Shown here in pieces: positions 33,703 to 50,408 of a DNA stretch of 64,000 bases. Where the stretch lies: NCBI GenBank assembly GCA_016927185.1, contig JAFGND010000060.1:36035-100034 (forward strand). The letters run 5' to 3'. The notes beneath the pieces were generated by a model. That model had not been told where the DNA came from. It worked only from the letters and a program-made list of their open reading frames with translations, and made no database searches. Source of the DNA: Candidatus Coatesbacteria bacterium (GTDB lineage: Bacteria > JAFGND01). Every line of letters begins with the position of its first letter. The first letter of the stretch is position 1. The translations under genes and the position numbers were made by a program.

Positions 33703-33845
33703 GGGATTTTTTAAAACCAATGCAATAATTTTGAGTTGCAAAGGATTATATTACTTGATGCTGCTTCAACAAGACATTCTCAAGGTTTTTCAAATCTATC
33801 TTGACACAAAAAATATATTTAATAGTCAGGGCATGTAACTTAAAT

Positions 33846-33918
33846 GCCCCTGTAGCTCAGCCGGTAGAGCGGATGGCTGTTAACCATCATGCCGTTGGTT
33901 CGAATCCAGCCGGGGGCG
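33846..33918 (+). tRNA. tRNA-Asn (anticodon GTT); CCA not encoded
   Basis: I folded the cloverleaf by hand. The acceptor stem is gcccctg/cgggggc and the D arm is gctc-agccggta-gagc. The anticodon stem is gatgg/ccatc with loop ctGTTaa. The T arm is gttgg-ttcgaat-ccagc and the discriminator is g. Confidence 0.9.
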
Positions 33919-34379
33919 AATTTGTTCAAAATCGTCTTTTTTATCACTTTTCTGACACTTCTTTTTCATTTCTTGCTTATTCAAGCTCTTAATTGTGAAC
34001 TTTTTTAAACTTCCTCTATTGATAGTTTCCTGTTGCATGGAGTTCAAATGTTCTTTCATCTTGCATCGGAGTTATTGACGAACTAAAACTATGAACAAAA
34101 CAGGAAGTCTTTGAATGCCATTGATTTACAAAGTAAAACACCTAATGATATGTCCTGTAATGATTTACTTCATTGTATTAGTATGTTAGTTTGAATATCA
34201 TGAATTAATCAATAGTATTCATGATGGTTTAAGGGCATAATTTTATTCTAAATCACAGGCAAAGGATCATGGGATAATAATTCAGTAAATATTAAGTACT
34301 TAATATCATAAGATTGTCATTTATACAAACATATTAAGATCTATAAAAGATTTCAGGGGATGCTTTTATTTGATCTCTC

Positions 34380-35306
34380 CTAATCTTCCTTCCTGAATTC
34401 CTCTATATACTTGATAAAGACCTTTCTGAAAAGAACTATATTCTCATAAAACCAGTTGAAATTGTTTTGCCTTTCTTTATCATAAACATCCGATACATAC
34501 TTTCTTTTTATTATTCTTTTTTGTGGAGTAGAATCTTTCCATTCCAGCTTTTCTCCAATCTCTTCTTCTATTTCATGTTTCTTTTTTTCAAGAAAATCAA
34601 ATAAAGGTTTGTCATATGTGTCCAAGCCACAATCTAAAGCTCTATCTTTCGTTCTAAGTACTAAATCAATATTTACATTTTTCTTCCCTATATTAAAAGT
34701 ATAATAATGTATTGGTTTCGGTTTACTAAAGCTCGTTTTTGTATCTTTCTTCACAATGTATTCCCTGAATTCAGTCCAGAAAGATAGTCTATTATTTTCC
34801 GTCTCCGTCATATCTCCTCTATAGGCTTCTTTCAAAGACTTTGCCCATTCATTAGGACTCACTATTATCTGGAACTTTGGTGCAGGTTTTGAATCTTCTA
34901 TCTGCCAGACTTCAATCTTGATTAGAAAGAATGAAATATTTTCATCAGTATGTTCATTAAGCCAATTAACAGCATTCTTATGATCATCAGTAAATTCTTT
35001 CACAATCCAGATAATGATTTCTGCATCCAGTCCTGAAGCATACACAAGCAACTTCCCAAGATGATCATGATTAGTAGATTCCAGCTGGTTTTCAATTACA
35101 ATTTTTCTGCTTCTTTCATCTTCTGCATAAATATCAGCTTTATAAGCTCCAAGAGGCTTTTCAGTCTGAATAAGATTAATATCTATCCCTATTTCCTCAC
35201 CAAGCATGTCAAGATTCTCTTCTTCTGCCAGCCACGGTGTGAAATCCTTACCTTCATCTTTCCAAATATCTCTTAACGGTCTTTTTTTTAGTTCCGATAG
35301 TTCCAT
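34380..35306 (-). CDS. DUF4268-like protein with an N-terminal PD-(D/E)xK-like module
   Basis: YKADIYAEDERSRKIVIENQLESTNHDHLGKLLVYASGLDAEIIIWIV...AVNWLNEHT...ISFFLIKIEVWQI...APKFQIIVSPNEW is present. It lies 40 nt downstream of the methyltransferase on the same strand. Confidence 0.6.
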   Translation of the reverse strand: MELSELKKRPLRDIWKDEGKDFTPWLAEEENLDMLGEEIGIDINLIQTEKPLGAYKADIYAEDERSRKIVIENQLESTNHDHLGKLLVYASGLDAEIIIWIVKEFTDDHKNAVNWLNEHTDENISFFLIKIEVWQIEDSKPAPKFQIIVSPNEWAKSLKEAYRGDMTETENNRLSFWTEFREYIVKKDTKTSFSKPKPIHYYTFNIGKKNVNIDLVLRTKDRALDCGLDTYDKPLFDFLEKKKHEIEEEIGEKLEWKDSTPQKRIIKRKYVSDVYDKERQNNFNWFYENIVLFRKVFIKYIEEFRKED

Positions 35307-35346: not shown

Positions 35347-38300
35347 TCATTCTCCAAGCAATTCCTCTTCATCCTCTTCAACAATCTTTTTTTTCCTTGA
35401 TATTTTTGCAGGGAGGGATTTGAGTTCTTCTTCGTGGTATTTGTGGTTGAGCTCTAAGAGACGTTTCAAAATCTCTCGTCTTGCAGTTTCTGATATTGTA
35501 TATCTTATCCTGTCTTCTTCAGGCAGATAGTCAACTTCATGGAAGGAATGCTCAAGATTGACATTTGTCCAGCCGTATGCTTCCAACACCTTGTCATCCA
35601 TATTCTTATGCAGTTCACGTAGTTTCAGAATATCTTGATAAGCACTTCCAGAAATATCCTCGTCTTCCAGTTTGCTTTCCTGTCTTACTTTCTCTACTGT
35701 CAAGTCCTTGTCATGAAACAGGTTATAAGTCTTTGTAAGTCCCAGTTTCATCTTAAGCATCATCTGCCGTCTATGTTCATGATAGGTTTTTCCGATTTCC
35801 TCCAAAGTCCTTTCCATGTCAGGAGTTAAGACAGGGAAGGGAAAGTTTTCAAAACAATCTGTTGGTGAATATCTTAGAACAATACCATATGTTGAACTAT
35901 ATTTTCTTACCCAAATATCGTAAAATGAGTTTTGTACTATACAATAGTCTATGAATGAATTTGAAGTAAATACAAACAAACCATCAGAAAAAATAAAAAT
36001 AGGTTGTGTTTTACTAAAGTTCAAATATTTGGTTCTTGCTCTAGCTACTACAAAACAACCATCCAGCTTTGACAGCGCGTTGTAGAGTGCTGGTCTTGAT
36101 CTATGAAAAAGCCACCAGTTTTCTCTAATATGGTTTTTGTTTTCGTTTGAGTCCTTCACAATCCTGTATGGTTCTTCATATTGCATTGCTTTTTCTTCTG
36201 GCCAGTCAAAGAAATTTATAATATATCTTGAGGGAGACTGGTCATATCTGTCATTCAAATCCTTGCCATTCAATAAAGGAAATATTACTTCTGCATTTTT
36301 GGGATTAGCTTCAATCAATTCATTTCTTTTATTTTCATCAAGGAGAAAACCTTCGCCTAGGAAAATCGAACCTTGAAACATCTTGTTTTTATTGTTATCT
36401 AAAGAATAAGGAGTGAGTAAGTCATCTTCAGGATAATAAGTAAGCATGGCACTTATATATGGAACAACTATATTATCCAATATTTTCCCTGACTTCATAC
36501 TCCTGATATCTTCTGTCTCTAAATTAACATCAGGTTGATAAAAATATCCTGTTTTAACATCAACTTTCTTTCTCAAGGAAAGCAAAGAAACAAAGACCTT
36601 GGCAATCCCAGGCCATCTTACAGAACGTTTTGCGAATACTATTTCTCCTTGCTTGTTGACTATATAAAACAGACCGCTTTCTCTTGTTCTTCCTTGTGAT
36701 ATAGTATTTGTTGCAATCAATGCACAAAAACCGTTCTCTTTCATAATTTCATAATCTCTTCTCAGGAAATAAGTTACAATATCACAACCACCAGATGGAT
36801 AATATTCCGTTTGCAGCCAATTTAGATAATCATCTCCATGTGTTCCGCTTATGGATTGCGTTCCAAGATACGGTGGATTACCAAGAATGCAGTCAAAGCC
36901 ACCTTGCTCCATGATTTCAGGAAATTCAAGAAAATAATGAAAAAACTGCTTTTTCTGTGCAATTTCAGAAGCTTTTCCTGCCTTCTTCTGATTGATTGTT
37001 CCAGGATTTTCTAGAAATTTCCTGAATTCACCATCAGTAACAAAATCTTGCTCATTATCAGAAGTCTTAGGCATGAAAAACTGCGCTGTTACAATGTCTG
37101 CAAGCTGCTTTGTCCTCCAGTAACCTGAATTATTCTTTATCTCGTCAAATCGCTTCTTCTTCTCATCAATCCTGTCTGCAGTGTCTTCTGGAAGCATATC
37201 AAGATACAAGTATTCCCTTATATATTCATCAGTTCCGCTCTTTATATCCGAAAAATCAAGTCCCTGTTGTGCAGCATTTTTCCTCTCATCCTTGTTTGTT
37301 CTCAATAATCTTCTTGAAACATCAGCATCATCTCCATAAATCTTCTTGAATGCCTCGTCAGGAATTCCTTTCTCAAGCTCGCTTTCATAAGCAAGCCCGA
37401 CAATTGCATCACCACATTTGATATGATGGTCCAAGAAACTCAAAGGTTCTCCAGGACAATGTGCCTCAAGCCACAAGGATACTCTGCATAACTCTACTGC
37501 AAGCTCGTTCTTATCCACTCCATAAATGCAATGCCTTATTACATCCCTGACTGCCTTTCGCAAATCAGGAGGGGGAGGCTGGTCTGATCTGCTTCTTACT
37601 CTTGCAAGTTCAAGTCCGATACGTCTTGCTGCATTCAGAAGCATGTGACCACTCCCGGAAGCAATGTCGCAGACCTTTATGGATAAAAGTGCCTTCTCCA
37701 CGTCAGCTTCCTTCCTCTTCTCTTCAATTATGTAGTCAAGTGAATGTCTAATGAGAGGTTGCACAAGCTCGTCAGGTGTATAATGAGAACCTGTTGTTGA
37801 ACGTTCATTTCCCTTGATGAGAGCGAATTCCCTTGCTTCAGTATTAATAAATGGCTTGAAGTCAAGCAAGCTTTCATATACTGAACCGAATTCCTCTACA
37901 TTAAGGGATGCATAATTTATGCGTCTTGTGCTTCCTGTCTTTGCATCAATAAAAGTGTTTATGGAACATATTGCAGAAAGAAGATCCCTGTTTTCAATGC
38001 AGCATTCATTCAATATGCTAATTGCCTGCTCCTTGAACAAATCTCCATTAAGCGGTTTTATCTCAAGAGCTTCTCCAAACCTTCCATTCTCGAATATCTT
38101 GAAAGTAAGAAGAAGAGCATTCCATAAATCGCTGTAATTGTTTTCATAAACATGCTTTTTTTCCGAAAGTTTTCTCAATCTGGTAACACTATAGTAATTA
38201 TAATAGATATCCCTGATGCTACTGTCCGTTCTATTTTCAAAAACAAGATTGCGCTCCTCAATGACTATGAGAAAAAGTATCTTGTAAACAAGCCTCAAGA

Positions 38301-39174
38301 GCAACCTGTTCAACTTCAGATCCGCTCCTTCATCCTTGAGGAAATCAGATAGTCTCTCCTGATTATCACACTTCTTGATGAAACCGTTTGCAAGTCTTTC
38401 TATGGATATCTTTACAGCCTCCGACAACTTGTCTCTTATCCTTGCTCCATGATCCAGAGCATCCTGATGATAACGCTCTAATATGCATTCAGAAGCAGTT
38501 TCTATTGACTGGGGCATCCTGCTTGAATGTATCAGTCTGAACATTATGGCAAATTCACTGAAAAGCTTCTCTTCAAGTATTTTCTCAAGATCGAATTCAA
38601 GATATGACAACCTTATCAATCTGCTGCAGTCTCTCAGAATTCTCAACCGCAAGCCGTCTGTAAGTATTCCATACAAATGCTCTTCAGTAAGATTAAGATA
38701 CTCCTGAATACATGAATGCGGGGAAAGCTTTCTTCTTTCTGCTTTTTCCATATCCTCGTTGAAGCCTATTATATAAACAGGAAGATTTGCCTTTCCTCTG
38801 TAATTTATTGGATAATAATTGTTATTGATTATTATGGCTGGCTCAGTTTTCTCAAGTTCATATCCAAGAAGACGCAGAAGTGGTTCAATAAAATAGACTC
38901 TTGTCTCTGATACACCTGTCTCAGTCTTTCCTGTTTCATAAGATATTGAGCTTTTTCCCTTTTCTATTATCCTTTCTCTATGCCTTTTGAAAATCGTCCA
39001 GTGAGCTTGTGCTTCTGTCCATAAATCAATGATGATTTCCTTCAACTTGACTTTTTTCTCAAATCCGAAACTTTCTGATGTCTGATGCGAAACCTGCTCA
39101 TCTCCTTCTGACAGCAGATCCAGTATATCATAGGAAAGTATTGATCCTTCTATGCGTATTGCATTGTATTTCAT
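35347..39174 (-). CDS. drmMI: Large gamma-class N6-adenine DNA methyltransferase (Eco57I/PglX/DrmMI-like) with a degenerate HsdR-N-like N-terminal domain
   Basis: Motif I is VCDIASGSGHMLLNAARR and motif IV is ILGNPPYLG. The N-terminus has ETRVYFIEPLLRLLGYELEK...YGILTDGLRLRILRD without a D/E-x-K triad. Its start shares 1 nt with the SNF2 stop. Confidence 0.65.
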   Translation of the reverse strand: MKYNAIRIEGSILSYDILDLLSEGDEQVSHQTSESFGFEKKVKLKEIIIDLWTEAQAHWTIFKRHRERIIEKGKSSISYETGKTETGVSETRVYFIEPLLRLLGYELEKTEPAIIINNNYYPINYRGKANLPVYIIGFNEDMEKAERRKLSPHSCIQEYLNLTEEHLYGILTDGLRLRILRDCSRLIRLSYLEFDLEKILEEKLFSEFAIMFRLIHSSRMPQSIETASECILERYHQDALDHGARIRDKLSEAVKISIERLANGFIKKCDNQERLSDFLKDEGADLKLNRLLLRLVYKILFLIVIEERNLVFENRTDSSIRDIYYNYYSVTRLRKLSEKKHVYENNYSDLWNALLLTFKIFENGRFGEALEIKPLNGDLFKEQAISILNECCIENRDLLSAICSINTFIDAKTGSTRRINYASLNVEEFGSVYESLLDFKPFINTEAREFALIKGNERSTTGSHYTPDELVQPLIRHSLDYIIEEKRKEADVEKALLSIKVCDIASGSGHMLLNAARRIGLELARVRSRSDQPPPPDLRKAVRDVIRHCIYGVDKNELAVELCRVSLWLEAHCPGEPLSFLDHHIKCGDAIVGLAYESELEKGIPDEAFKKIYGDDADVSRRLLRTNKDERKNAAQQGLDFSDIKSGTDEYIREYLYLDMLPEDTADRIDEKKKRFDEIKNNSGYWRTKQLADIVTAQFFMPKTSDNEQDFVTDGEFRKFLENPGTINQKKAGKASEIAQKKQFFHYFLEFPEIMEQGGFDCILGNPPYLGTQSISGTHGDDYLNWLQTEYYPSGGCDIVTYFLRRDYEIMKENGFCALIATNTISQGRTRESGLFYIVNKQGEIVFAKRSVRWPGIAKVFVSLLSLRKKVDVKTGYFYQPDVNLETEDIRSMKSGKILDNIVVPYISAMLTYYPEDDLLTPYSLDNNKNKMFQGSIFLGEGFLLDENKRNELIEANPKNAEVIFPLLNGKDLNDRYDQSPSRYIINFFDWPEEKAMQYEEPYRIVKDSNENKNHIRENWWLFHRSRPALYNALSKLDGCFVVARARTKYLNFSKTQPIFIFSDGLFVFTSNSFIDYCIVQNSFYDIWVRKYSSTYGIVLRYSPTDCFENFPFPVLTPDMERTLEEIGKTYHEHRRQMMLKMKLGLTKTYNLFHDKDLTVEKVRQESKLEDEDISGSAYQDILKLRELHKNMDDKVLEAYGWTNVNLEHSFHEVDYLPEEDRIRYTISETARREILKRLLELNHKYHEEELKSLPAKISRKKKIVEEDEEELLGE

Positions 39175-42014
39175 TACATTACCCCCTTGTCAGGGACGAG
39201 TATGTAAAGACCCAGCAAGTCTGGGGAAAGAGGATTCAATTTCCTGTAACTGCTTCCCTTATCAATGATTTTCTTGTATCTTTCATGGGATTCTATGAAA
39301 TTATCAAGCCTTGTTTCAGAAAGCAACTTGAGCCTTTCCTGCAGTCCTGTGTTGTAAAATCGCATTATTTCCTCAAACCAATATACCTTTTCTTCCTTTT
39401 CCATGTTTGCAGAAGGAGGCATGCTCAAAATCTTTTCTAGTTCTTCTCTGTCAGTGATCTCAACAGCATCTGATAGACCGGAATAACCGAAAAGAATCAC
39501 TTCCTCAGCATATATCTTTCTGCCTCTTTTCTTTTCCTCAATGACATGCCTTAAGCGAAGTATGAATATGCTCGTAATCTTATTAACTTCACTGGATTTT
39601 ATTACTGAAACTCTCCTTATGTAGTCATCACGAACTTCCTTGCTGAATGCTTGCGCTATAACCATTTTCGATAACTGCTCTACAAAAGGATGATTGCGTC
39701 CAATGTATGTAAATCCCTCATCTACAGGTGATTTGAAACTGATCTTTAATGTATCTTTCTTCTTGCTCTTGAAAAGCTCATGACTTAATATTTCATCAAG
39801 ATCTTGCGCATTAACATAATAGCCTTTGCCTGCTCCCTTGAGATTTATGCCTCGTATGGCTTGAACAGCATTTATTACGAATTTTTCGACTGCTTCAGGG
39901 CTGCCTATAGTATCATCCAGAGCAAGAAGATCTTCTTCAATCTCATTTGCTTTTATTGCGTTCTGGGCAAAAATCTCCCTTGATTCTTCCTCTCTTTTTC
40001 TGGCATTATCAATCTCTTCTTCTGCTTTCCTTGCAAGTTCTACATAACGAATATCTTCAAATATTTCCCCCTGGTCAATATGTCTGTCAACTGCCTCCTT
40101 TTTCAGTATCCCTTCAAATAAAAGATCCATAAGTGTTGCATTATCTTCTGGAAAAGGAACTGAAATACCTGTATTCTTCCTTATATTCTTTATCTTTTCA
40201 AGAAGAATATCCCAGATAACCTTGTCTATGCGATTATTCTCTCCAAGTATATAATAGACCTTGACTTCCTTGCACTTCTGACCAAATCTGTCTATTCTGC
40301 CTTCCCTTTGCTCAAGCTTGTTGGGATTCCAGGGCAAATCATAATGAATGACTGCATTGAATTTGTCCTGCAGATTAATACCTTCGCTCAAGCAGTCTGT
40401 TGCAATAAGAATCCTCTTTTCATACAACAACATGTCATCAATTCTTATTTTTCTTGTTTCATCGTCATCCTCGCTTGTAACAGCCTGAACAATTATTGAC
40501 TTATGAATCTTTTCCAGTTCTCCCTTCAGGAATTCTTCTATATATTTTGCAGTATTAATAAATCTGCAATACACAATTGTATTGAATCCCTCTTTCAACA
40601 GGCTTTTCAGTATTTCATTCAATTTTGCAAGTTTGCTGTCATTTTCCAATCCCTTGAAGCTTTCAAGTTCTGATGCAAATTCCGATAATTTTCCCTTTTC
40701 ATATGAGTTGAATTCAGTCCTGTCAATTATATCAGTTCTGATATTATCATCAGGAGTGAAATCCTTCTCTATATATGGAATATCATCCTCTATTTCCTCT
40801 AATCCCTTGTCTTCCTCCCTTTTTATCCTGTTCTTCAGCATTTCAATTCCTGATGCCGGGCTTGAAGTTATACCTCTCAGAAGAACAAGTGCTGACCAGT
40901 ACCTGAATTTCTGCTGAATTGCTTTAAGAGTATTGTCTTTTTTCATCAGTTTCAAGGCAAAAGTGTGTATTTTTTCATAATAAGCCAGGAAATTATCGCT
41001 GAAACTGTAATAGAAAACATTAGGTATTCTGTTCGGGAAAGGTGTCTCTTCATTAAACCATTTTTCTAGATCATTCCTTCTTCTTTGAACATAGTATTTT
41101 GCAATCTGTCTTCTTTGCTCTGCATCTGCAGTCGTTATATCCATTTCAAGGAAATCATTGCTTATCAATCCCAGAAGTGATTGAAATTCATCTATTTTAC
41201 CACTGTGTGGAGTTGCTGTAAGAAGTATCAATCCTTTATCACTGTTTTTTGCAAGTTCCTCTACAATGCTGTATCTGAGTTTCTGACTGTTATTTGTACC
41301 TGAAGGTCTTGAACAAGAATGTGCTTCATCAATAACTACCATTTCAGGTGCATTGATTATGAATTCATTTCGTCTTTTCTCGAATTTTATGAAATCTATT
41401 GATATTATCTGATAGGGATAGTAATCATAAATGCTTCTGTCGCCATGCATTTCCCTGTCCAGTCTTCCCTGAGTATTAGTCCTTATTATTACAGGATCAA
41501 TACCCATTTTCTCCTGCATTTCCTTTTGCCACTGATCACAGAGATGAGGGAGACAGAGAACTGCAAATTTTTTTATCTCTCCTCTTTCAATAAGCTCTTT
41601 GAGAACAAGAATCGTCTCTATTGTCTTGCCGACACCTACATCATCAGCAATGAATAGTCTGATATTCTCTTTCTGACGCAATGCCATCACAAGTGGAACT
41701 ATCTGGTAAGCTCTTGGTCTGAAAGATAATCTGGCAATTGATCTGAAGGTGCTTGATGAACTTCTTATGGATAGTCTTATTGCATCAAATAGAAGCATGG
41801 TCAAAGATTTCTCACCTATGTCACTTTTGTCAGGCAATGGAAAAGTATAGGGTTCAAGATTATCAAGCTGCATACCAAGCTGCTTATAGATTCCTACTGT
41901 CTCTTCTTCAGTTCCATTCAATGGTTGAAGCAATACCAAATCATTATTATTGGATGGAATTTTTACCCATTGCCTGTTCCTGAACTTCACCAAAGAGCCA
42001 TCTTCAAAAAACAT
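39174..42014 (-). CDS. drmD: SNF2-family helicase (DrmD-like)
   Basis: Motif I is LFIADDVGVGKTIETI, motif II is MVVIDEAHSC, motif III is LLTATPHSGK and motif VI is EQREGRIDRFGQ. The region before motif I (SFRPRAYQIVPLVMAL) resembles DISARM-associated SNF2 proteins as I recall them. Confidence 0.65.
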   Translation of the reverse strand: MFFEDGSLVKFRNRQWVKIPSNNNDLVLLQPLNGTEEETVGIYKQLGMQLDNLEPYTFPLPDKSDIGEKSLTMLLFDAIRLSIRSSSSTFRSIARLSFRPRAYQIVPLVMALRQKENIRLFIADDVGVGKTIETILVLKELIERGEIKKFAVLCLPHLCDQWQKEMQEKMGIDPVIIRTNTQGRLDREMHGDRSIYDYYPYQIISIDFIKFEKRRNEFIINAPEMVVIDEAHSCSRPSGTNNSQKLRYSIVEELAKNSDKGLILLTATPHSGKIDEFQSLLGLISNDFLEMDITTADAEQRRQIAKYYVQRRRNDLEKWFNEETPFPNRIPNVFYYSFSDNFLAYYEKIHTFALKLMKKDNTLKAIQQKFRYWSALVLLRGITSSPASGIEMLKNRIKREEDKGLEEIEDDIPYIEKDFTPDDNIRTDIIDRTEFNSYEKGKLSEFASELESFKGLENDSKLAKLNEILKSLLKEGFNTIVYCRFINTAKYIEEFLKGELEKIHKSIIVQAVTSEDDDETRKIRIDDMLLYEKRILIATDCLSEGINLQDKFNAVIHYDLPWNPNKLEQREGRIDRFGQKCKEVKVYYILGENNRIDKVIWDILLEKIKNIRKNTGISVPFPEDNATLMDLLFEGILKKEAVDRHIDQGEIFEDIRYVELARKAEEEIDNARKREEESREIFAQNAIKANEIEEDLLALDDTIGSPEAVEKFVINAVQAIRGINLKGAGKGYYVNAQDLDEILSHELFKSKKKDTLKISFKSPVDEGFTYIGRNHPFVEQLSKMVIAQAFSKEVRDDYIRRVSVIKSSEVNKITSIFILRLRHVIEEKKRGRKIYAEEVILFGYSGLSDAVEITDREELEKILSMPPSANMEKEEKVYWFEEIMRFYNTGLQERLKLLSETRLDNFIESHERYKKIIDKGSSYRKLNPLSPDLLGLYILVPDKGVM

Positions 42015-45000
42015 TATCTCACCTTCTTGAAAATATATTTATATTTGGCAACCCAATCATCCAGATTGTCTTTATAATCATAGACTATAACATGATAACC
42101 AGATTCTTTCAAACTAGTTCTCTGTTCTTTATCTCTTTCTTTCACATCATCCTTTTCATGTACACTTCCATCTATAAAAACAAGAATGTCAGGTTTGTAA
42201 AAGAAATCGCAGCAAGAATATATATCTTTTGTTCTTACCTGGGCGTCATCAGGTAGCTTTAATCCATTTTTAAAAAGGAATTCAAGGAAAACGCTTTCAG
42301 TAGCAGAATTCTTGTCTACCTTGCTTCTTATTCTTTCATGCTGTTCTTCATAGGATTCATTGCTTAGTGTCTGTTTTATTGTAATCCTGCTTTTAATTAG
42401 AACATCAAGCAATTCCTTTATCTTGAATCTGTCTATCTCATTATGATGTCTCTGGTTGTAGTAACTCAACAGATCATCATATGAAGCCAAATCCTTATAT
42501 TCCTCATCATCAAATCTGCATATTTCATAAGCATTGGCAAAGACATTTGTAAACCGCTTAAACTCTTCGGTAAATGATTTCAAGATACCAAGACTGCCTT
42601 CAACATTCTCGAACAAGAGTATATTTCTCTTGTTTCCTTCGCCAATCATTTCCCCACCAATTTCACCTTCTTCAGCATTGTATTCTTTATTAATGCCTGA
42701 TATAAGGGAATAAAGAAAAGTGATATTTCCCCCGCTGTTCCATTCTTCAATATTAATTGCATCAGTCGGTTCAAGATAAATGATGTCAGAAATAAATGTT
42801 GTATATAACTTCACTCTTCTGAAATCTTGGTTACCGGTTTCCTTTTCACTTCCCCAATCTCCGTTTTTGTAATTAAGCAGGAAGCCTTCTTCATCTTTTG
42901 TTGTCCATTTGGAATTCACTCTGTAAAGAAGAGCACTAGGTATATATCTTGCTTTGAAAAGATCGCCTATCAAGATTTCAGTTGCTTTTTCAAGCCCGTC
43001 AGGTGATGCAAAAAGAGTCTTGATTTCATATCCTTTTGAAATCCTGTTTTCTTCTTCGCATGATATTCTTGAACTTCTTTCCGTCTTCATATTCTGCAGT
43101 TCTATGAGATTATTCAGGTTAACAAGAGGCTGGGTATCATTGAATGTTTTCTGGCAGAAAGGACAGATGTCTTTACTGAATTCATCCTTTATCATTATAT
43201 AACCCGTATTCCTGCATACTTTTGCTTTTTCAATCCTGTTCAGAACGTCCCTTTCTTCAGTTGGCAAGATCATTTTTGTTATTCTGTATTTTGAACCTGA
43301 ATGATAAATCAGGTTTTGAGGACCTGACTCATTAATCGCAATACCTCTTGCTCTTGATATGTATTCTCCCTTTATTCCATCTGAAATATATGTCCAGATG
43401 GGAAGCCTTGAGAAATTAAAACCTGGAAGAAAGCCTTCTGATGCAAGATATCTGTAAGGATAAAAATCACTGTTATAGGAAGAACCTTTGTTTTTTGAAT
43501 CATTCATCAAGAAGTCCAGCTGAATTTTAGCTTGTTTCACTCTTATTTCTGCATCTATCCATTTCTCACTTGTTTTTTTCAGGAAATGGTTTTGCATGTC
43601 ATTTAATGCTGTTTTTAATTGTGCATTTGCTGATGAGTAAAGTTCCCTGAATCTCTTCAATGCCATGTCAAAATTATCACAAAGATGATCAATCTGGTTA
43701 TTTATCCATTCAGGATTCAGCCAAGAAAGGTCTTTGGGGTGATTGTTTCTAATATCCTCAGTAACTCTACTGAAGACATCAAAAATCTCTTTCTTTGTTG
43801 CATTATTAAGATTAAGCTGTTGTTTACTTTCTTCTTTTAATGGTAAGCCTTCCTTTTCTATATCAACTATATCTCTTAGTGAATTTCTCAAATCAAGATT
43901 GGCATATGAAAGACAGATTGAATTTAAATGTGTTTCAAGGAGTTCCTTGTTTGTCAAATCCATATTAGCTGTTTTCACTGTACCAGAAACCATTTCCCTT
44001 GAATTTGCAAAATAGTGCCTGTCATGAGGGGAAAAAGGCGTGCAATAAGTGAAAATAATTGCAGGTTGTCCGCTTCTTCCTGCTCTTCCGCTTCTCTGTG
44101 CATAATTAGAAGGACTTGGAGGAACATTCCTCATGTATACCACGTTCAGTGTTGAAATGTCAATTCCAAGCTCCATGGTAGGAGAACAGAACAGAGCATT
44201 GACATTTCCTTTCCTGAACTCTTCTTCAATCTCTCTTCTTTTCTCACTACTTATCTGTCCTGTATGTTCCCTCGCAGTTATAGGAATAAAGAAGGATTCT
44301 CTATAGAGATTCTGAAAATACTCATTAGGAAGGATTTCAAGAGTACTTCTGAAAGGTGTTCTTACAGGATCGGGAAGCACTGTTTTCTCATTTCCTCGCT
44401 TCCATACTATATTATTCAATTCCAGTTGATATGTAAATATCTCTTCATTATTGCTATAAAGTTTGTCTTTTCTCAAAAAACCATTTTTAGAAAGTACATC
44501 AAACAATTCCTCCATGCACAATGCATATTCATCTTTGTTCAATAAATAAGTATTTTCCTTAAGTTCATTTCTCAAATACTTGCCTAGATAACTCTGGAAA
44601 CCAAGGGTTTTCGCATATCTTACTTTTCTTGCTTTTTTAATACTTCTAATTGTAAAAATGTAAGGTTCATCAATCTTGTTATCATTCTCAAATCTATATT
44701 CTTCAGATAAAAGCTCATTAATCCTCTTCATATTGATATCAATTTTACCATAGTTCATCAAGCTTTCACTGTAAATGGCATAGTTCTTTCTGAAATAATC
44801 AAATATTTGAAAGAGTAACTCTTGCCTTTTTTCTTTTGTAATTCCGTTGAATATCTTGCATTTTCCAGTGAACACATCTTCAGATATTTCCTTTAGATTC
44901 TTATACTCAATCTCAAGTAGTGCACATTGTTCCAGATTTGGGAACGCAGTTTTCCATTCAAATCTCAAATCATCAATGATTTTATATAAAAGATAATTTA

Positions 45001-47047
45001 CGAAGACATCCTCGTTTTCCTTCTTTTTTGAAGCTATATCAGATGGACTTCTTGCATAATCCTTCTGTTCGAGATTAAGTGCCTGCAATACATGATTTCC
45101 TATGTTTGAATAATCCAGTCCTTCATTACTGCTTTTTACAGCAGCGTATATTGCAGATCTCAGTCTTATATTCTCTACAAAGCTATTGAAATGACCAGAC
45201 TGGAATGCTGCATCCTGTCTGTTGTCAATAAAACATAATACTTTGCTTTCCTCTTTACTTAGTTCGCTTTTCTGCATGGATTTTAATGTAGATAAGACTA
45301 TGATATCACTGGCAGTGCTTCTTCCTTCGTCTCCAAGTCTAAGTAATTTTGTTCTTTCTTTTGTATATTTGCTATAGAATTCCTTGCTTGTCGGATCAAA
45401 TAACAGATTACAGGGCATATACCAGCCTGAATAATCTAAATCCTTCTCTTGTGAATATGAAAATCTGCAATCACTATTGAAGAATATTCGTCTGGGAAGC
45501 CTTTTTTCTATTTCCTTTTTGATGATCTGTTCAGATCCTTTGAAATCAAACCATTCAACAGGAAGATTCTCCTTCTCAGTATCGTCCCAGACATCCTGAT
45601 ATGGAATTATATATCCTGATTCTTCATTATCTTCCTCATCAAAAGAATCAGCAAATTCCCTCGGAATAAGCTTATCTTTGCTTAATTTCACGCAATAGAA
45701 TTCATAACCAGATAATCTGCTGAAAACAACAGGAAAAAATGTTTTACCGATTTCATTGCCAGCTTCAGCTTTTACATCTAAATAATCCCTGTTAAGAGTT
45801 GCATAAATTGCTCCTTTGGGAGCTATGAATTGATGAAGTTTGAAAGGTAAATATGCTTGATTGAATTTCTTATTTATTTGTGTAATAGAATGAAGCAATT
45901 CCTTTATTCTTGAAATGCAAAAGTCTATATCCCTGCCAATCTTTTCAGCGAGCTTTTCTGCAATTTCATTAAATCTCATCGGTTCATTTCTTCTTAGAAC
46001 TCCGTCCTTTTCAATTAATGCAATTTCATTTTCAAGCCAGCATGCAAATAATGATTTTTTAATATTTTCAGTATTTTCGGTTATTCTTGCACTTGAGAAA
46101 TTGATTATATCTTTTAACAGGTCATTTTTAGAGATACTCTCCGAGTATAGAAAGTACTTGCTTAATGTTTCATCTATTATTGAATTTGTTTCAAAAGGTC
46201 TTCCAAATATCAATGTTGCTACATCAGCTATTTTCTTCTTGTCTTGATGCAAATCCTTTTCAGAAGTCATTGTTGCTGAAGTTCCTATGAATACTAGCTT
46301 TTGTCTTGCTTTTGAACTTAAACGTCTTATTAGTATTGCTACATCTGATCCTTGTCTTCCCCTATAAGTATGCAATTCATCAAGTACAAGAAATTTGAGA
46401 TTGTTGAAAATAGATTCCCTTAAAACGCTTTCACTTGCTCTGGTCAATATTAAATCCAGCATGACATAATTAGTTAGAATGATATCAGGTGGATTTTCCT
46501 GAATCTCATCTTTCTCTACTTTACTTTCTTGTCCTGTATAAATTCTGCAAGAGATTGGATATTTGATTTCAGAATTATTTATGTATCTCTCCATCTCTTT
46601 ATTTTGAGAATTAATAAGTGCATTCATAGGATAGACAACTATACCTTTTATTCCCTTTTCTTTTCGTTTTAATGCATAATTTACAATGGAAAAGAAATAA
46701 ATCAGGGATTTGCCAGAGCCTGTTCCTGATGTTACAATGAAATCCTCTTCTTTTACTCCCTTTTTTATACCTTCTATTTGATGTTGAAATAGTCTGGGGA
46801 TTTTAAATATATTGGATAATTCCTTATCAAGAGATTCTTTTCTACATAATTCTTCAATTGTTGAACCAGTTTTAAAAGCAGGATTGAATTTTATATATGG
46901 TTCAGGAAAACACACTCTCTTTTCAAATTCCTCATCCAAGAAATCTTTTATTTTCTCATTTTTCAAGTTGACAGGTGTTTTGATATAAGATTTATAATCA
47001 TTTCTTATTGATTCATAGATATTAAATATATCAATTGTGTTTTCCAT
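42014..47047 (-). CDS. 1677-aa DExH helicase with a DUF1998-like region and a C-terminal DUF559/Vsr-like endonuclease domain
   Basis: Motif I is IVTSGTGSGKSL, motif II is FLVLDELHTYRG, motif III is GTSATM and motif VI is YAQRSGRAGRSGQ. Further downstream lie YPYRYLASEGFLPGFNFSRLP and CRNTGY...CPFCQ. The C-terminus has CDFFYKPDILVFIDGSVHEKDDVKERDKEQRTSLKESGYHVIVYDY. Confidence 0.7.
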   Translation of the reverse strand: MENTIDIFNIYESIRNDYKSYIKTPVNLKNEKIKDFLDEEFEKRVCFPEPYIKFNPAFKTGSTIEELCRKESLDKELSNIFKIPRLFQHQIEGIKKGVKEEDFIVTSGTGSGKSLIYFFSIVNYALKRKEKGIKGIVVYPMNALINSQNKEMERYINNSEIKYPISCRIYTGQESKVEKDEIQENPPDIILTNYVMLDLILTRASESVLRESIFNNLKFLVLDELHTYRGRQGSDVAILIRRLSSKARQKLVFIGTSATMTSEKDLHQDKKKIADVATLIFGRPFETNSIIDETLSKYFLYSESISKNDLLKDIINFSSARITENTENIKKSLFACWLENEIALIEKDGVLRRNEPMRFNEIAEKLAEKIGRDIDFCISRIKELLHSITQINKKFNQAYLPFKLHQFIAPKGAIYATLNRDYLDVKAEAGNEIGKTFFPVVFSRLSGYEFYCVKLSKDKLIPREFADSFDEEDNEESGYIIPYQDVWDDTEKENLPVEWFDFKGSEQIIKKEIEKRLPRRIFFNSDCRFSYSQEKDLDYSGWYMPCNLLFDPTSKEFYSKYTKERTKLLRLGDEGRSTASDIIVLSTLKSMQKSELSKEESKVLCFIDNRQDAAFQSGHFNSFVENIRLRSAIYAAVKSSNEGLDYSNIGNHVLQALNLEQKDYARSPSDIASKKKENEDVFVNYLLYKIIDDLRFEWKTAFPNLEQCALLEIEYKNLKEISEDVFTGKCKIFNGITKEKRQELLFQIFDYFRKNYAIYSESLMNYGKIDINMKRINELLSEEYRFENDNKIDEPYIFTIRSIKKARKVRYAKTLGFQSYLGKYLRNELKENTYLLNKDEYALCMEELFDVLSKNGFLRKDKLYSNNEEIFTYQLELNNIVWKRGNEKTVLPDPVRTPFRSTLEILPNEYFQNLYRESFFIPITAREHTGQISSEKRREIEEEFRKGNVNALFCSPTMELGIDISTLNVVYMRNVPPSPSNYAQRSGRAGRSGQPAIIFTYCTPFSPHDRHYFANSREMVSGTVKTANMDLTNKELLETHLNSICLSYANLDLRNSLRDIVDIEKEGLPLKEESKQQLNLNNATKKEIFDVFSRVTEDIRNNHPKDLSWLNPEWINNQIDHLCDNFDMALKRFRELYSSANAQLKTALNDMQNHFLKKTSEKWIDAEIRVKQAKIQLDFLMNDSKNKGSSYNSDFYPYRYLASEGFLPGFNFSRLPIWTYISDGIKGEYISRARGIAINESGPQNLIYHSGSKYRITKMILPTEERDVLNRIEKAKVCRNTGYIMIKDEFSKDICPFCQKTFNDTQPLVNLNNLIELQNMKTERSSRISCEEENRISKGYEIKTLFASPDGLEKATEILIGDLFKARYIPSALLYRVNSKWTTKDEEGFLLNYKNGDWGSEKETGNQDFRRVKLYTTFISDIIYLEPTDAINIEEWNSGGNITFLYSLISGINKEYNAEEGEIGGEMIGEGNKRNILLFENVEGSLGILKSFTEEFKRFTNVFANAYEICRFDDEEYKDLASYDDLLSYYNQRHHNEIDRFKIKELLDVLIKSRITIKQTLSNESYEEQHERIRSKVDKNSATESVFLEFLFKNGLKLPDDAQVRTKDIYSCCDFFYKPDILVFIDGSVHEKDDVKERDKEQRTSLKESGYHVIVYDYKDNLDDWVAKYKYIFKKVR

Positions 47048-47324
47048 ATTTCACCTTTCTTAAATCCTTTTAAAATTCGCCATATTAAAAGCATACTTAT
47101 GTCAAGCCAATAATATTTGTTAGTAATGAAAACTAAAAGTATAGCAGACTGATGTTTTGCATCCTGCAATTCAAGGCATTAGAACTGCATTCTATTTTAC
47201 GAAAGTCAATGCACTAACTTAAATTAATAATGCATTAACAATGAAAGAGTAATTCTTAATTTGCTTTCTTTCAAGTATATATGGAGAAATATGAACAGAA
47301 AATTTAAACTTTCACTATCAAGAT

Positions 47325-48125
47325 TTACCTAAATGCCTTCCCCTCAAGAATAAAATTCTTTACATTCTGAATATTTTCCTCATATCTTAAACCTTCAAAT
47401 TTAATTGGTTCTTTAGTTATTGTCTTTTTCCCTTCATATAACCTTAATCCTTCAGGAGATGCAATCCCAAAACGTTTTACATTCATTTTTTGGGCATACC
47501 TACTTGCTTGCTTAAAGGCTCTCTGTATACCAGCATTGCTTTTTATAGTTTTTTTATCCTCAAATAAAAAGACTCCTTTTCCATTACGCAATATGAGAAA
47601 GTCTATATGCCTGTCTTTGAAAAAACCTTCATGGAAATATTGATATTTATAGTCTTTTTCTTTTACAAAACCTAGTGACTTGAGAAATATCCTTTCCATG
47701 ATTTTCTTATCGAACTCAATTTCTTTCTTATTTGTAAAATTTTGTATATCACTGTACCATAGTTCTTTGAATTGAGTGAAATCAAATTTCTTTCCTTCTA
47801 ACACATTATCAATTCCCTTGGCATATTTTTCTATTTTTTCTGCTCCTTTTGATATCAAAAATTCTGCAATTTCCCTATGCTCATTATAACAAGCATACAC
47901 TAAAGCATTTGCTCCCCTTTTATTAATCCTGTTTATTTCTGCACCATTTTCAATTATAATTTTGACTATCTCCCTGTGACCATTTAAACAAGCCATTGTT
48001 AATGGTGAATTTTTTTCTTCATTGTATATATTAACATCTATCCTATTTGAAACAGCTTCTTTCACTTTCTCCAATTTTCCTTTTTCTGCAGCTTCAAACA
48101 AGTCTCTACTATCTTTGTTGTCCAT
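47325..48125 (-). CDS. Ankyrin-repeat protein fused to a C-terminal HsdR-N-like PD-(D/E)xK domain
   Basis: Ankyrin repeats are present (SPLTMACLNGHREIVKIIIENGAEIN, GANALVYACYNEHREIAEFLISKGA). The C-terminus has ERIFLKSLGF...IDFLIL...VFLFEDKK...QASRYAQ...FGIASPEGLRLYE. Confidence 0.65.
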   Translation of the reverse strand: MDNKDSRDLFEAAEKGKLEKVKEAVSNRIDVNIYNEEKNSPLTMACLNGHREIVKIIIENGAEINRINKRGANALVYACYNEHREIAEFLISKGAEKIEKYAKGIDNVLEGKKFDFTQFKELWYSDIQNFTNKKEIEFDKKIMERIFLKSLGFVKEKDYKYQYFHEGFFKDRHIDFLILRNGKGVFLFEDKKTIKSNAGIQRAFKQASRYAQKMNVKRFGIASPEGLRLYEGKKTITKEPIKFEGLRYEENIQNVKNFILEGKAFR

Positions 48126-48180: not shown

Positions 48181-48588
48181 CTATTTTTCTGAATCCTTTA
48201 ATAAATCCTTATTCATCAATGCTTTATATAGCTCCAGTGAGATTTCATAAATATGCTTTTCAAGATATTTCTGGTCTTTCCAGTCTTTTCTTGACAAGAA
48301 TTCATTTGAGAACTTCTCAAAAGGCTCATTACTTGCTTTATGGTTTTCAAAAAGGTAAAACAGTGTCAAAAGAACGTGATCCCCTAAAGATGAAGTATAC
48401 CATGCTGGAGGGATATATGAATTGAAAACTTTCTGATTGAATTGCATGGAAAACTTAGCTTGTGGAATAAAATCAAAGAAATCATTTTCCGCAATCCCAC
48501 AGGATGGGCAAACAATGCCTCTTTTGAACGGAATATAATGAGCCTGACATTTGCTGCATTGATGATTATAAAATATATGATGTGTCAT
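48181..48588 (-). CDS. Hypothetical Zn-ribbon protein
   Basis: CSKC-x14-CPSC is at the N-terminus. I recognise no family. It lies downstream of the McrC-like gene on the same strand. Confidence 0.4.
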   Translation of the reverse strand: MTHHIFYNHQCSKCQAHYIPFKRGIVCPSCGIAENDFFDFIPQAKFSMQFNQKVFNSYIPPAWYTSSLGDHVLLTLFYLFENHKASNEPFEKFSNEFLSRKDWKDQKYLEKHIYEISLELYKALMNKDLLKDSEK

Positions 48589-48674: not shown

Positions 48675-49598
48675 TCATTTTAATCCCATTTTTTCTATTG
48701 CTTCATTTATTCCATTTCTGACATTTTCCTTCAAGTCCATGCCAATAGCTATTATGCAGACATTGTTTTCTGTTGTTTCTGAGAACTCTATTTCGCTCTT
48801 GGGATACAAGAGATATGCTATTTTGCAATCCTGTTGAGTTGCATAAAAAGAAACCTGGTAAATATCATCATTTGATGGTTCACTTGCATCCTTGTACTTT
48901 GTATCTAAAATGTATTTTGTCTCAGTTTCAAGATGCCTCAGCAACAAATCAATCTTGCAATCCTTTTTACCAAATCTGAATTCCTTCTGTGCTTCTATAT
49001 CCAAGAATTCCTTCATATGCTTCTTGAAGTATGAAGCAACAAATTTTTCAAATAACAAGGGCATGTCTATTACAAAAGGGATCATCCTTTCATCACCATA
49101 TTCATGAGAAGGGGAGAGTAAATCAAGAAAGAATGCACACAGATTATGAATGGGAACATAATCCTCATTTAGCCTGTTATAATTCAATACATGGCAATCA
49201 TGAGATGTAAAATGCTGCAAATTTATACATCCTGCAAGTATACGGAAACAATACATTACGTTGTTAGAGACAAAGTCATCTTTTATTATATTCCTGAGAA
49301 GATATAGAGTATAAAGGATTATCCTGTTTTCTTTTATATCAATTGTATTAAGTCTGTACAGACATGGGATTTTAAGTAATACCGGATTACTTATCATGTC
49401 ATTGATTTTCAGTCTACCCCTTAGATAGTCCTCATTTCCGTCATATCCTAAATAAGTCTTATATAGCCCCTTCTTTATCCTTTCATCAACCAAGTCTGTC
49501 AGATGCTTTGCTATCCTGTTTAATATCTCGTCAAAAGTCTTTGTTTCTGTTTGACCAATTATTTCAAAAATATCAAGCTCATATACGTAATCAAGCAT
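48675..49598 (-). CDS. McrC-like PD-(D/E)xK restriction-system component; no McrB partner present
   Basis: YLRGRLKINDMI, IPFVIDMPLLFEKFVASYF and KIDLLL...YILDTKYKD...DDIYQVSFYA are present. At 307 aa it is shorter than the McrC proteins I recall. Confidence 0.55.
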   Translation of the reverse strand: MLDYVYELDIFEIIGQTETKTFDEILNRIAKHLTDLVDERIKKGLYKTYLGYDGNEDYLRGRLKINDMISNPVLLKIPCLYRLNTIDIKENRIILYTLYLLRNIIKDDFVSNNVMYCFRILAGCINLQHFTSHDCHVLNYNRLNEDYVPIHNLCAFFLDLLSPSHEYGDERMIPFVIDMPLLFEKFVASYFKKHMKEFLDIEAQKEFRFGKKDCKIDLLLRHLETETKYILDTKYKDASEPSNDDIYQVSFYATQQDCKIAYLLYPKSEIEFSETTENNVCIIAIGMDLKENVRNGINEAIEKMGLK

Positions 49599-49667
49599 CT
49601 CAAATACATTCTTTATCGGGATCTTGGGATTAACTATTACTACCCCGAAGATGAGAGATTGAAAGAA

Positions 49668-50408
49668 ATGACGAAGTTGGAAACAACAATGTCTGAAAAT
49701 ATTGGAATATTTGAAAATGCAACTAACAAAATGCTAGAACAACTTGATAAGACTTCAAATACACTTCTGGATGCATCAAACAACATGACGGAACCTGTAA
49801 ATAATCTTAATGAAACCTTGAAATCTTTTGATGAGCTTAATAAAACATCCCAAGACTTGGTTATAAATGCCAATGATATCTATGGAAGGATTAACAAATC
49901 TAACGAATCTATTAATGATTTGCTTGGAAAACTGGATTCTCAATTATATAAGATAGCTGAAGATGATAAAAACAGAATTGATGCATTGAAGGAATTTACA
50001 GACAAGCTTGTTACAATCATTTCAGAGCTGAAACCTGTCAAAGATGGAATTAGTAATAATTTGGCTGATTTTCACAAGCAGTTGAAAGATGGTCAGAAAA
50101 ATATGGAAGATATGATTTTGAATATCGAAAACCTAAAAACTTCATTAGATTATTTAAACGCAACTATAGAAAAAATGAAAGAATCTCTGGAAGAGATAAA
50201 TACAAAACGTACTGAAAAAGTCATCAGTATGTTTGAGGAATGGGATAATCTGACAATCAGATTGACAAACGTAAATGAAAAAATTTCTGAGTATCAGAAA
50301 AATCTTAAGGATATGATTAATATGGAGAGAAGGGAATATAATAATTTGAATATAGTAATGGAGAATTTTGCAAATCATATAAAATCGCTGGTTGAAAATG
50401 CTCAATAG
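49668..50408 (+). CDS. Coiled-coil protein with no TM segment
   Basis: The sequence is heptad-like and rich in N, K, E and L throughout (LNETLKSFDELNKTSQDL...IENLKTSLDYLNATIEKMKESLEEI). The start is taken at the ATG at 49668, because the track start (TTG at 49551) overlaps the McrC-like gene. Its stop is within 1-17 nt of the next start. Confidence 0.45.
   Translation: MTKLETTMSENIGIFENATNKMLEQLDKTSNTLLDASNNMTEPVNNLNETLKSFDELNKTSQDLVINANDIYGRINKSNESINDLLGKLDSQLYKIAEDDKNRIDALKEFTDKLVTIISELKPVKDGISNNLADFHKQLKDGQKNMEDMILNIENLKTSLDYLNATIEKMKESLEEINTKRTEKVISMFEEWDNLTIRLTNVNEKISEYQKNLKDMINMERREYNNLNIVMENFANHIKSLVENAQ

Follow-up and report, generated by a model that had tools for sequence, protein, structure and literature searches.

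An ARMADA Type I-like operon with a cysteine-poor helicase in a Candidatus Coatesbacteria defence island

Three adjoining minus-strand genes of a Candidatus Coatesbacteria bacterium (assembly GCA_016927185.1, contig JAFGND010000060.1) encode a large helicase-nuclease, an SNF2 helicase and an N6-adenine DNA methyltransferase. They occupy positions 35347 to 47047 of the 64,000-nucleotide stretch that we analysed (contig positions 36,035 to 100,034), referred to here as the window. An earlier note on this DNA had read the genes as an atypical class 1 DISARM operon and as a candidate for a new kind of system. We conclude, with a probability of roughly 0.85, that the locus is an intact ARMADA Type I system in the order armC-armA-armB, and not an atypical DISARM. 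The helicase adds a new and divergent member to ARMADA Type I; the layout itself was catalogued in 2025 under that name, so the claim of novelty fails. The helicase belongs to a widespread group of relatives in which the cysteines of the DUF1998 zinc site have been lost, a feature of a large Type I subclade that appears to have gone unremarked.

Results

A three-gene operon with the ARMADA Type I layout

The name ARMADA was given to operons that combine a DruE-like helicase of the YprA family with an SNF2 helicase resembling BrxHII/RapA and a methylase resembling PglX (Bell et al., 2025, PMC12458937; a bioRxiv preprint of September 2025 by Bell, Gaudin, Wu ... Beisel and Koonin). In Type I the genes run in the order YprA helicase, SNF2, methylase, and the helicase has a C-terminal Vsr nuclease predicted to be active (PMC12458937). 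The window operon consists of the following genes, listed in the order of transcription:

42014..47047, minus strand: armC-like gene, the first of the operon, for a YprA-family DExH helicase-nuclease of 1677 aa
39174..42014, minus strand: armA-like gene for a BrxHII/RapA-like SNF2 helicase of 946 aa, translationally coupled
35347..39174, minus strand: armB-like gene for a PglX/DrmMI-like N6-adenine DNA methyltransferase of 1275 aa, translationally coupled

Both junctions, helicase/SNF2 and SNF2/methylase, read TAATG, a 1-nt overlap of stop and start codons, and a purine-rich stretch resembling a ribosome-binding site (RBS) lies immediately 5′ of each. The earlier note had described three minus-strand genes joined in this way and its coordinates prove exact, as do the motifs that it named: DELH at residue 223 of the helicase, DEAH at residue 229 of the SNF2 protein and NPPY at residue 766 of the methylase. 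All three open reading frames (ORFs) are long and intact, and the ATPase, methylase and nuclease motifs are all kept. There is no PLD domain in the operon or in any ORF scanned with Pfam between 27 and 62 kb, in agreement with the earlier note's statement that a PLD-domain gene is missing, and no ArmD-like (UvrD-like or GajB-RelE) gene follows the operon, the next gene being one for a DUF4268 protein.

Relatives of the helicase number in the thousands, of which the top 120 are full-length (about 1690 aa) and 41–45% identical to it. Four full-length homologues with 41–44% identity (P0019, P0071, P0106 and P0111; accessions NQV36814.1, MBF0224892.1, MBF0238118.1 and MCX6170646.1) carry the label 'ARMADA Type I helicase' in Table S1 of the ARMADA study (PMC12458937). 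With ArmA-D and DruE from the defence island of E. coli ATCC 8739 as labelled references, we built a neighbour-joining tree from 27 sequences and 1649 columns with 100 bootstraps, in which the window helicase clusters with the four Table S1 Type I helicases (bootstrap 76). E. coli ArmC (Type II) and DruE (Druantia III) fall outside the wider Type I group (bootstrap 68), and DrmA is a distant outgroup. BLASTP puts the window helicase at about the same distance from ArmC (130 + 101 bits) and DruE (101 + 97 bits), and its match to the DrmA of its own genome is restricted to 100 residues and 45 bits.

Profile searches place the helicase near DruE and far from DrmA. The PADLOC models DruE3 and DruE1 match it at 7e-79 and 9e-73, compared with 1e-13 for DrmA, and the NCBIfam model DISARM_DrmAS yields 22 bits where its cut-off is 950. 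The earlier note had put forward a DruE/MrfA-like architecture as its alternative, and these scores bear that out. As PADLOC-DB 2.0.0 (2023) contains no ARMADA model, DruE comes out on top because it is the nearest profile available. The best PDB sequence match is 9tu7, a helicase of 2108 aa.

The SNF2 protein carries the Pfam domains SNF2-rel_dom and Helicase_C and, besides its DEAH box, a GVGKT motif at residue 127. PADLOC matches it to DpdE (9e-142), DrmD (1e-79) and BrxHII (7e-52); in NCBIfam it scores 300 bits with DISARM_DrmD (cut-off 610) and 166 bits with the DpdE equivalog (cut-off 500), and matches RapA at 5e-37. RapA proteins are also its best PDB relatives by sequence, and BLASTP aligns it with E. 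coli ArmA at 6e-42 (25% identity over 643 aa). The methylase has the Pfam domains Eco57I, MmeI_Mtase, N6_Mtase and MmeI_TRD, the last an MmeI-type target-recognition domain, together with an S-adenosylmethionine-binding motif, DIASGSG, near residue 505; Pfam detected no MmeI-type N-terminal nuclease domain. Its PADLOC matches are DrmMI (2e-203), models of Type IIG restriction endonuclease-methyltransferases (2e-103) and PglX (2e-12), its NCBIfam match to BREX PglX is weak and far below the cut-off, and it aligns with E. coli ArmB at 2e-22 by BLASTP. No PDB sequence relative of the methylase was found at E≤0.001.

The three genes stay together in many phyla

In a scan of species-representative genomes, at least 597 proved to have a relative of the helicase, and 80 loci were retrieved from them. 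The scan needed an alignment as query, a single window protein finding no relatives. The SNF2 and methylase genes were then located in the 80 loci by tblastn with the window proteins, with this outcome:

50 loci: helicase, SNF2, methylase in that order on one strand
8 loci: helicase, SNF2, then the end of the contig
3 loci: reversed block order
2 loci: both genes present in another arrangement
2 loci: a methylase fragment at the upstream edge
9 loci: too short to judge
6 loci: neither gene in the visible flanks

Among the 71 informative loci, 58 are consistent with the order helicase, SNF2, methylase. The linkage of the three genes is far beyond chance and is conserved across many phyla, and the same trio is present in two metagenomic relatives that we inspected gene by gene. 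A reversed order has been reported for cyanobacteria and archaea (PMC12458937). No conserved fourth gene follows the methylase among the relatives.

In 20 of the 50 complete loci the gap between the SNF2 and methylase genes exceeds 500 nt, and it holds a mixture of defence-island hitch-hikers. We inspected this cargo in loci L004, L007, L009, L011, L015, L016, L020, L029, L030, L044, L056, L061, L072, L074, L082 and L085: it includes SLFN/AlbA_2-HATPase_c_4 genes (7 loci) as well as YhcG/DUF1016, PDDEXK_13, a PLD nuclease, GmrSD, AbiEii, HNH, DUF3800, an Hsp70-like gene and Fic. The junction resembles the hitch-hiker slots of Type I restriction-modification (R-M) operons. The window operon is the compact form, with no cargo between the two genes.

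The methylases of these loci differ in how far they resemble that of the window. In about 22 of the 57 methylase-matching loci (L009, L011, L029, L038, L040, L045, L048-L050, L058, L060, L062, L065, L066, L069, L071-L074, L077, L082 and L085) similarity ends near residue 769, just past NPPY, which indicates that the target-recognition half, at the C-terminus, either varies greatly or is encoded separately. A variable target-recognition half is what would be expected if specificity diversifies.

Architecture of the helicase

For structure prediction the helicase was split at residue 1020 and each half modelled with 55 homologues as the alignment, giving a mean pLDDT score (predicted local distance difference test) of 82 for the N-terminal half and 85 for the C-terminal half. 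The following parts were delimited:

46253..46795, minus strand: RecA1 lobe, residues ~85-265, with Walker A GSGKS (K113) and DELH 223-226
44393..46150, minus strand: insertions between and within the RecA lobes, residues ~300-885, from the secondary structure of the N-terminal model
44003..44353, minus strand: RecA2 core, residues ~899-1015, from Pfam Helicase_C and QRSGRAGR
43493..43948, minus strand: long helical segment 3′ of RecA2, residues ~1034-1185, helices at 15-161 of the C-terminal model
42413..43465, minus strand: OB-CON-DUF1998 (MZB) 'canopy' module, residues ~1195-1545, from Foldseek matches to MrfA and DrmB
42017..42325, minus strand: Vsr/DUF559-type PD-(D/E)xK nuclease domain, residues ~1575-1677, the C-terminal ~100 residues

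Pfam recognises DEAD at residues 89-263 and Helicase_C at 899-993, and the helicase motifs include GSGKS at 110, SAT at 257 and QRSGRAGR at 984 in addition to DELH. The Walker A and DELH residues of RecA1 are invariant in a 20-sequence alignment of the family. In the published description of ARMADA helicases, a BrxA-like insert follows RecA1, RecA2 contains beta-barrel and MarR-like inserts, and a helix-turn-helix (HTH)/coiled-coil element comes after RecA2 (PMC12458937). In our N-terminal model the insertion region is helical at first, then beta-rich (~400-545), and then made up of helical and winged-helix segments, an order that agrees with the published BrxA-like, beta-barrel, MarR-like series; the match is one of segment type and order. 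The family description has CxxC motifs here, whereas the window helicase has none between residues ~300 and 885, the beta-rich insert included. The modelled helical segment at ~1034-1185 would, judged by position alone, correspond to the published HTH/coiled-coil 'finger'. Whole-chain Foldseek searches with the helicase models returned helicase cores only.

Against the PDB, MrfA (6znp) is the best Foldseek match of both halves (E=1.6e-10 for the N-terminal half, 9.8e-8 over 355 columns for the C-terminal half), and the only other significant match of the C-terminal half is DrmB (7s9v_B, E=7.4e-4). In the predicted structures, then, a DrmA-like core and a DrmB-like OB-CON-DUF1998 canopy are fused in one polypeptide, as the earlier note had proposed for the DrmA-like and DrmB-like functions.

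A canopy without the canonical zinc ligands

The earlier note had also claimed a DUF1998-like region, and here the outcome is divided: the fold is supported by the matches to MrfA and DrmB, whereas the canonical zinc ligands are missing and the Pfam MZB match is sub-threshold. The canonical four-cysteine site is replaced by CR(F/Y)DD...ASYDDLLSYYNQ (CRFDD in the window protein), a motif shared with the closer relatives. At the four canonical positions the window helicase has C, F, S and D where E. coli ArmC has C, C, C and C, and a partial cysteine cluster (C1278, C1295, C1298 and C1330) is found in the OB insert. There is one CxxC motif in the whole protein, compared with 9 in E. coli ArmC and 6 in DruE. 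The canonical DUF1998 cluster (CxC...GCxxC) is kept in ArmC, in DruE and in the DrmB of the window.

An MZB annotation is precomputed for most of the helicase homologues. Scored with a single tool against the Pfam gathering cut-off of 24.2 bits, six proteins gave the following MZB matches:

E. coli ArmC: 50 bits, full profile
E. coli DruE: 48 bits, full profile
L082, a Cys-rich Type I relative: 40 bits, full profile
window DrmB: 28 bits, full profile
P0007, a Cys-poor relative: 26 bits, profile positions 1-64 only
window helicase: 18.1 bits, below the cut-off, profile positions 3-65 of 80 only

Since the last two matches stop at profile positions 64-65, it is the cysteine-bearing tail of the domain that is missing from the window helicase and P0007.

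This state is common. In an alignment-based count over 59 species-level helicases, 39 have at most one cysteine at the four canonical positions, and every relative sharing 36% identity or more with the window protein is among them, the phyla being Bacteroidota, Desulfobacterota, Ignavibacteriota and others. The other 20, from Chloroflexota, cyanobacteria and Planctomycetota, keep two to four of the cysteines and are 31–35% identical. The Cys-poor clade (0-1 CxxC) and the Cys-rich clade (5-8 CxxC) are sisters in the tree. In the ARMADA study such a loss is noted for Dpd helicases only, which are still counted in the YprA family (PMC12458937); the cluster is therefore characteristic of the family without being obligatory. 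That the replacement motif is conserved, the operons are intact and the model is confident speaks against decay and for a functional fold independent of zinc, and presumably the canopy fold is kept without zinc.

The C-terminal nuclease

The domain that ends the helicase is, with moderate confidence and on the strength of its residues and alignments, a Vsr-type nuclease whose catalytic residues are retained. E1584, D1614, D1626-G1627, H1630, D1639 and R1643 are invariant in the family. Pfam DUF559 matches the domain at E=0.002-0.004, which is sub-threshold, and the same holds for the family members scanned. A better link is provided by the helicase of locus L082, which is 33% identical to that of the window and has a C-terminal domain above the Pfam DUF559 cut-off: hhalign aligns the two C-terminal domains with 99% probability (E=7e-18). 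The domain can also be aligned in register with its Vsr counterpart in E. coli ArmC, and Foldseek relates it to 3r3p_B, the catalytic domain of the Vsr-like I-Bth0305I (probability 0.87). A search of its profile against PDB sequences gave nothing meaningful. The earlier note had placed a nuclease other than PLD at the helicase C-terminus, and a Vsr/DUF559-type PD-(D/E)xK domain fits that description.

Flanking regions and the defence island

Directly outside the operon lie two features on the same strand:

47048..47324, minus strand: upstream intergenic region of 277 nt, the presumed promoter region, with the RBS AAAGGTGA before the helicase ATG
34380..35306, minus strand: DUF4268/PDC-S11 gene (Pfam DUF4268 7e-21; PADLOC PDC-S11 2e-107)

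A scan for sigma-70 consensus promoters gave scores no better than those of shuffled sequences, so that no promoter was assigned, and a terminator consensus scan stayed at or below the shuffle level, with no usable signal. The DUF4268 gene starts 40 nt past the methylase stop and has an RBS, and neither inspection of the sequence nor the consensus scan revealed a terminator-like site between the two genes; it is probably co-transcribed with the operon. As a component of the system it was rejected, since a homologue is linked in only one of the 80 loci, that of Desulfofundulus thermobenzoicus (L050), where the gene is directly upstream of the ARMADA helicase.

The operon belongs to a defence island that is separated by a tRNA-Asn gene from housekeeping genes (rpoN, lipopolysaccharide glycosyltransferases) and comprises the DUF4268/PDC-S11 gene, the ARMADA trio, an ankyrin/HSDR_N-like gene, a McrC-like gene, further ankyrin proteins and a canonical class 2 DISARM cluster. 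No second copy of the tRNA-Asn 3′ end is present within the window, which leaves the island boundary or attachment (att) site undefinable, no integrase was seen within the window, and Rfam found tRNA only. The principal features are:

27431-28825, plus strand: RpoN
33845-33919, plus strand: tRNA-Asn(GTT), the island boundary
47325-48125: ankyrin protein with a weak HSDR_N-like C-terminus, a neighbour of the McrC-like gene
48181-48588: orphan ORF of 135 aa, a neighbour of the McrC-like gene
48675-49598, minus strand: McrC-like gene (Pfam McrBC 1e-34)
54378-57713, plus strand: class 2 DISARM, DrmE_C-containing protein of 1111 aa
57858-58820, plus strand: DrmMII 5-methylcytosine (5mC) methylase (PADLOC 3e-80)
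58847-62176, plus strand: DrmA (PADLOC 3e-220)
62188 to the window end (64000), plus strand: DrmB-like ORF (MZB 28 bits, canonical Cys cluster)

The McrC-like gene has no recognisable McrB GTPase adjoining it. In the plus-strand segments 49551-51225 and 52006-53360, a coiled-coil protein and an OmpA/MotB-like protein overlap and have weak similarity to the ZorA tail (1e-7) and ZorB (2e-12), and two further ankyrin-repeat proteins match the PADLOC candidate PDC-M72A. The class 2 DISARM cluster lies 7 kb from the operon in the same island; two YprA-family systems with different methylation chemistries thus adjoin in the window. RpoN has one metagenomic match of 62% identity and is otherwise at most 42% identical to known sequences, the best named matches being from Latescibacteria, Krumholzibacteriota and Zixibacteria; the host belongs to a deep-branching uncultured lineage that has been poorly sampled.

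Discussion

The layout, the gene order, the company of labelled Type I helicases in the tree and the linkage of the trio in other genomes lead us to identify the window operon as ARMADA Type I. The two claims of the earlier note that bore on novelty do not survive: the operon is no DISARM variant, and the supposedly undescribed arrangement, down to its order, is the one named ARMADA Type I (PMC12458937). It was the literature that held the catalogued subtype with this exact layout; the 2023 release of PADLOC-DB has no model for it. Other parts of the note fared well. A relationship to DISARM through a DrmD-like SNF2 protein and a DrmMI-like adenine methylase in a putative defence operon is supported by the sequence matches, and the co-occurrence of the genes that it asked about is real, the order being kept in 50 of 80 loci.

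Several points weigh against the identification. The nearest helicase homologue is 45% identical, the Type I label of Table S1 is that of the homologues, and the bootstraps of 68-76 are moderate and come from a simple neighbour-joining analysis. The four-cysteine DUF1998 zinc cluster, a hallmark of the YprA family, is absent from the window helicase, its Pfam MZB and DUF559 matches both lie under the gathering thresholds, and a direct hhalign comparison found no significant similarity between its nuclease domain and E. coli Vsr. The match to the published BrxA-like, beta-barrel and MarR-like inserts is one of segment type and order. Experimental tests of ARMADA have been limited to Type II, with none for any Type I system (PMC12458937), and ARMADA II has an essential fourth gene, armD, that is absent from the window operon (PMC12458937). 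The mechanism set out below is plausible, and owes everything to analogy.

Four other explanations have to be set beside ARMADA Type I. The earlier note's own, an atypical class 1 DISARM with a DrmA-DrmB fusion, another nuclease in the place of DrmC and a changed gene order, strikes us as very unlikely. The SNF2 protein and methylase are indeed homologous to DrmD and DrmMI (PADLOC 1e-79 and 2e-203; 300 bits with NCBIfam DISARM_DrmD), the C-terminal module of the helicase is structurally DrmB-like in the models, and the ARMADA authors themselves stress the genes shared with DISARM (PMC12458937). However, the helicase prefers DruE models to DrmA by a wide interval (7e-79 vs 1e-13) and gains 22 bits from DISARM_DrmAS, whose cut-off is 950; the SNF2 score of 300 bits is below the DISARM_DrmD cut-off of 610; the true DrmA of the window (PADLOC 3e-220) is a distant relative with a 100-residue, 45-bit match and an outgroup position in the tree; and the operon has neither a separate DrmB nor a PLD-domain DrmC. 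The layout, moreover, already has a name and a clade of its own. We give very little credence to a Druantia variant, for example Type III-B, where DruE is sometimes accompanied by a Vsr nuclease, that happens to adjoin an unrelated SNF2-methylase pair. Such a reading would accommodate the PADLOC preference for DruE3 and DruE1, the PDB match to the 2108-aa 9tu7 and the fact that some Druantia III-like helicases carry a Vsr nuclease, but translational coupling ties the SNF2 and methylase genes to the helicase and in most genomes they are found together with it, the close homologues are labelled ARMADA Type I and not Druantia, and the clade does not include E. coli DruE. A PADLOC scan of 15 neighbouring proteins showed no DruH, DruA-D or DruF/G/M partner, a DruC match of 2e-4 to a coiled-coil protein being all that was seen.

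It is equally hard to see the helicase as an accessory to a methylase core, with or without the SNF2 protein, in a BREX-like, Type IIG/ISP-like R-M or Dpd-like system, and we regard this as highly improbable. The methylase does match Type IIG models (2e-103) and PglX, the SNF2 protein matches DpdE (9e-142) and BrxHII (7e-52), and the SNF2-methylase gap of the relatives holds the same kinds of hitch-hikers as R-M operons; yet the neighbours scanned include no BrxA/B/C, PglZ, BrxL, dpdA-C or queC-E genes, in NCBIfam both PglX and DpdE score far under the thresholds set for them, Pfam detected no nuclease domain of the MmeI type at the methylase N-terminus, and the helicase is the most tightly conserved partner. 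Least credible of all is a decayed, non-functional remnant in which loss of the zinc site marks inactivation of the helicase. The canonical DUF1998 cysteines are missing and a single CxxC is left, but the three ORFs are long and intact, every ATPase, methylase and nuclease motif is preserved, and the model is confident (pLDDT 85). The Cys-poor state is also common to dozens of full-length relatives from many phyla that have the conserved motif ASYDDLLSYYNQ and the operon, which indicates purifying selection.

How an ARMADA Type I system of this form might work can be sketched by analogy with ARMADA Type II, DISARM and Druantia III, from which we infer a role of the operon in anti-phage defence. 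The PglX-like methylase would mark a host motif with N6-methyladenine (m6A); it is probably also required in the defence reaction, as in BREX and ARMADA II, and probably aids target discrimination. The RapA/BrxHII-like SNF2 ATPase may act as a DNA translocase or remodeller. The ArmC-like helicase would load on single-stranded or forked unmodified invader DNA and translocate along it at the expense of ATP, 3′-to-5′ as is the case for DruE, a single-stranded DNA (ssDNA)-binding and ssDNA-dependent 3′-to-5′ helicase. The fused Vsr-type nuclease would then cut the invader, and infection would be cleared without cell death. In ARMADA II all genes are required, as are the ATPase (Walker) motifs of ArmA and ArmC and the NPPW motif of the methylase, and protection is direct and non-abortive (PMC12458937). 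The position of the window operon beside a class 2 DISARM parallels the reported synergy of ARMADA II with Druantia III and suggests a pairing of the two systems, with m6A and 5mC marks.

The identification as ARMADA Type I closes the question from which this analysis arose, and the locus should not be pursued as a new system. As a compact three-gene ARMADA Type I copy with intact catalytic motifs it is nevertheless a reasonable candidate for cloning. We think it unlikely that the operon should be set apart as a distinct, zinc-free subtype of ARMADA Type I in which a conserved non-cysteine motif replaces the zinc cluster and almost all the remaining CxxC modules. Separate status would be merited if the loss of zinc alters the regulation of the helicase or evades phage inhibitors, and likewise if the three-gene form works without the fourth helicase of Type II, perhaps alongside the adjacent class 2 DISARM. 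Druantia III defence depends on the MZB domain, and the Cys-poor subclade, which occurs widely in Bacteroidota, Desulfobacterota, Ignavibacteriota and related uncultured lineages, offers a natural test of whether YprA-family helicases need the zinc of MZB/DUF1998.

Among the known systems, Druantia Type III (DruH-DruE) shares with the window system a large YprA helicase-nuclease that has an MZB domain and, as far as segment type and order show, a like series of insertions, and differs in its DruH partner, in having two PLD domains in DruE instead of Vsr, and in lacking SNF2 and methylase genes. Class 1 DISARM (DrmD, DrmMI, DrmA, DrmB and DrmC; Ofir et al., 2018) likewise brings together an SNF2 protein, a large N6-adenine methylase and a YprA-family helicase with a DUF1998 function, and both it and the window system are likely to be modification-aware, DNA-targeting defences; the DISARM helicase, however, is from another YprA branch, and DISARM has a separate DrmB, a PLD-domain DrmC and another gene order. 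ARMADA Type II, validated as armABCD of E. coli NCTC 12900, EDL933 and ATCC 8739, has homologous ArmA, ArmB and ArmC proteins and presumably the same direct, non-abortive mode of defence. Its order, armA-armB-armC-armD, is reversed relative to that of the window; armD, a GajB-like helicase with a RelE domain, is absent from the window, ArmC, at 2113 aa, has 9 CxxC motifs as well as additional EEP and Vsr domains that are inactive, and ArmB has NPPW in place of NPPY. With respect to ARMADA Type I the window protein is divergent, part of a subclade without the four-cysteine cluster and the CxxC modules of the family representative, and the window copy is compact, with 1-nt overlaps, no cargo and an appended DUF4268 gene. 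It shares with ARMADA Type I the same three genes in the same order, a DruE-like helicase with a fused OB-CON-DUF1998 module, neither ArmD nor PLD, and a Vsr-type nuclease at the helicase C-terminus.

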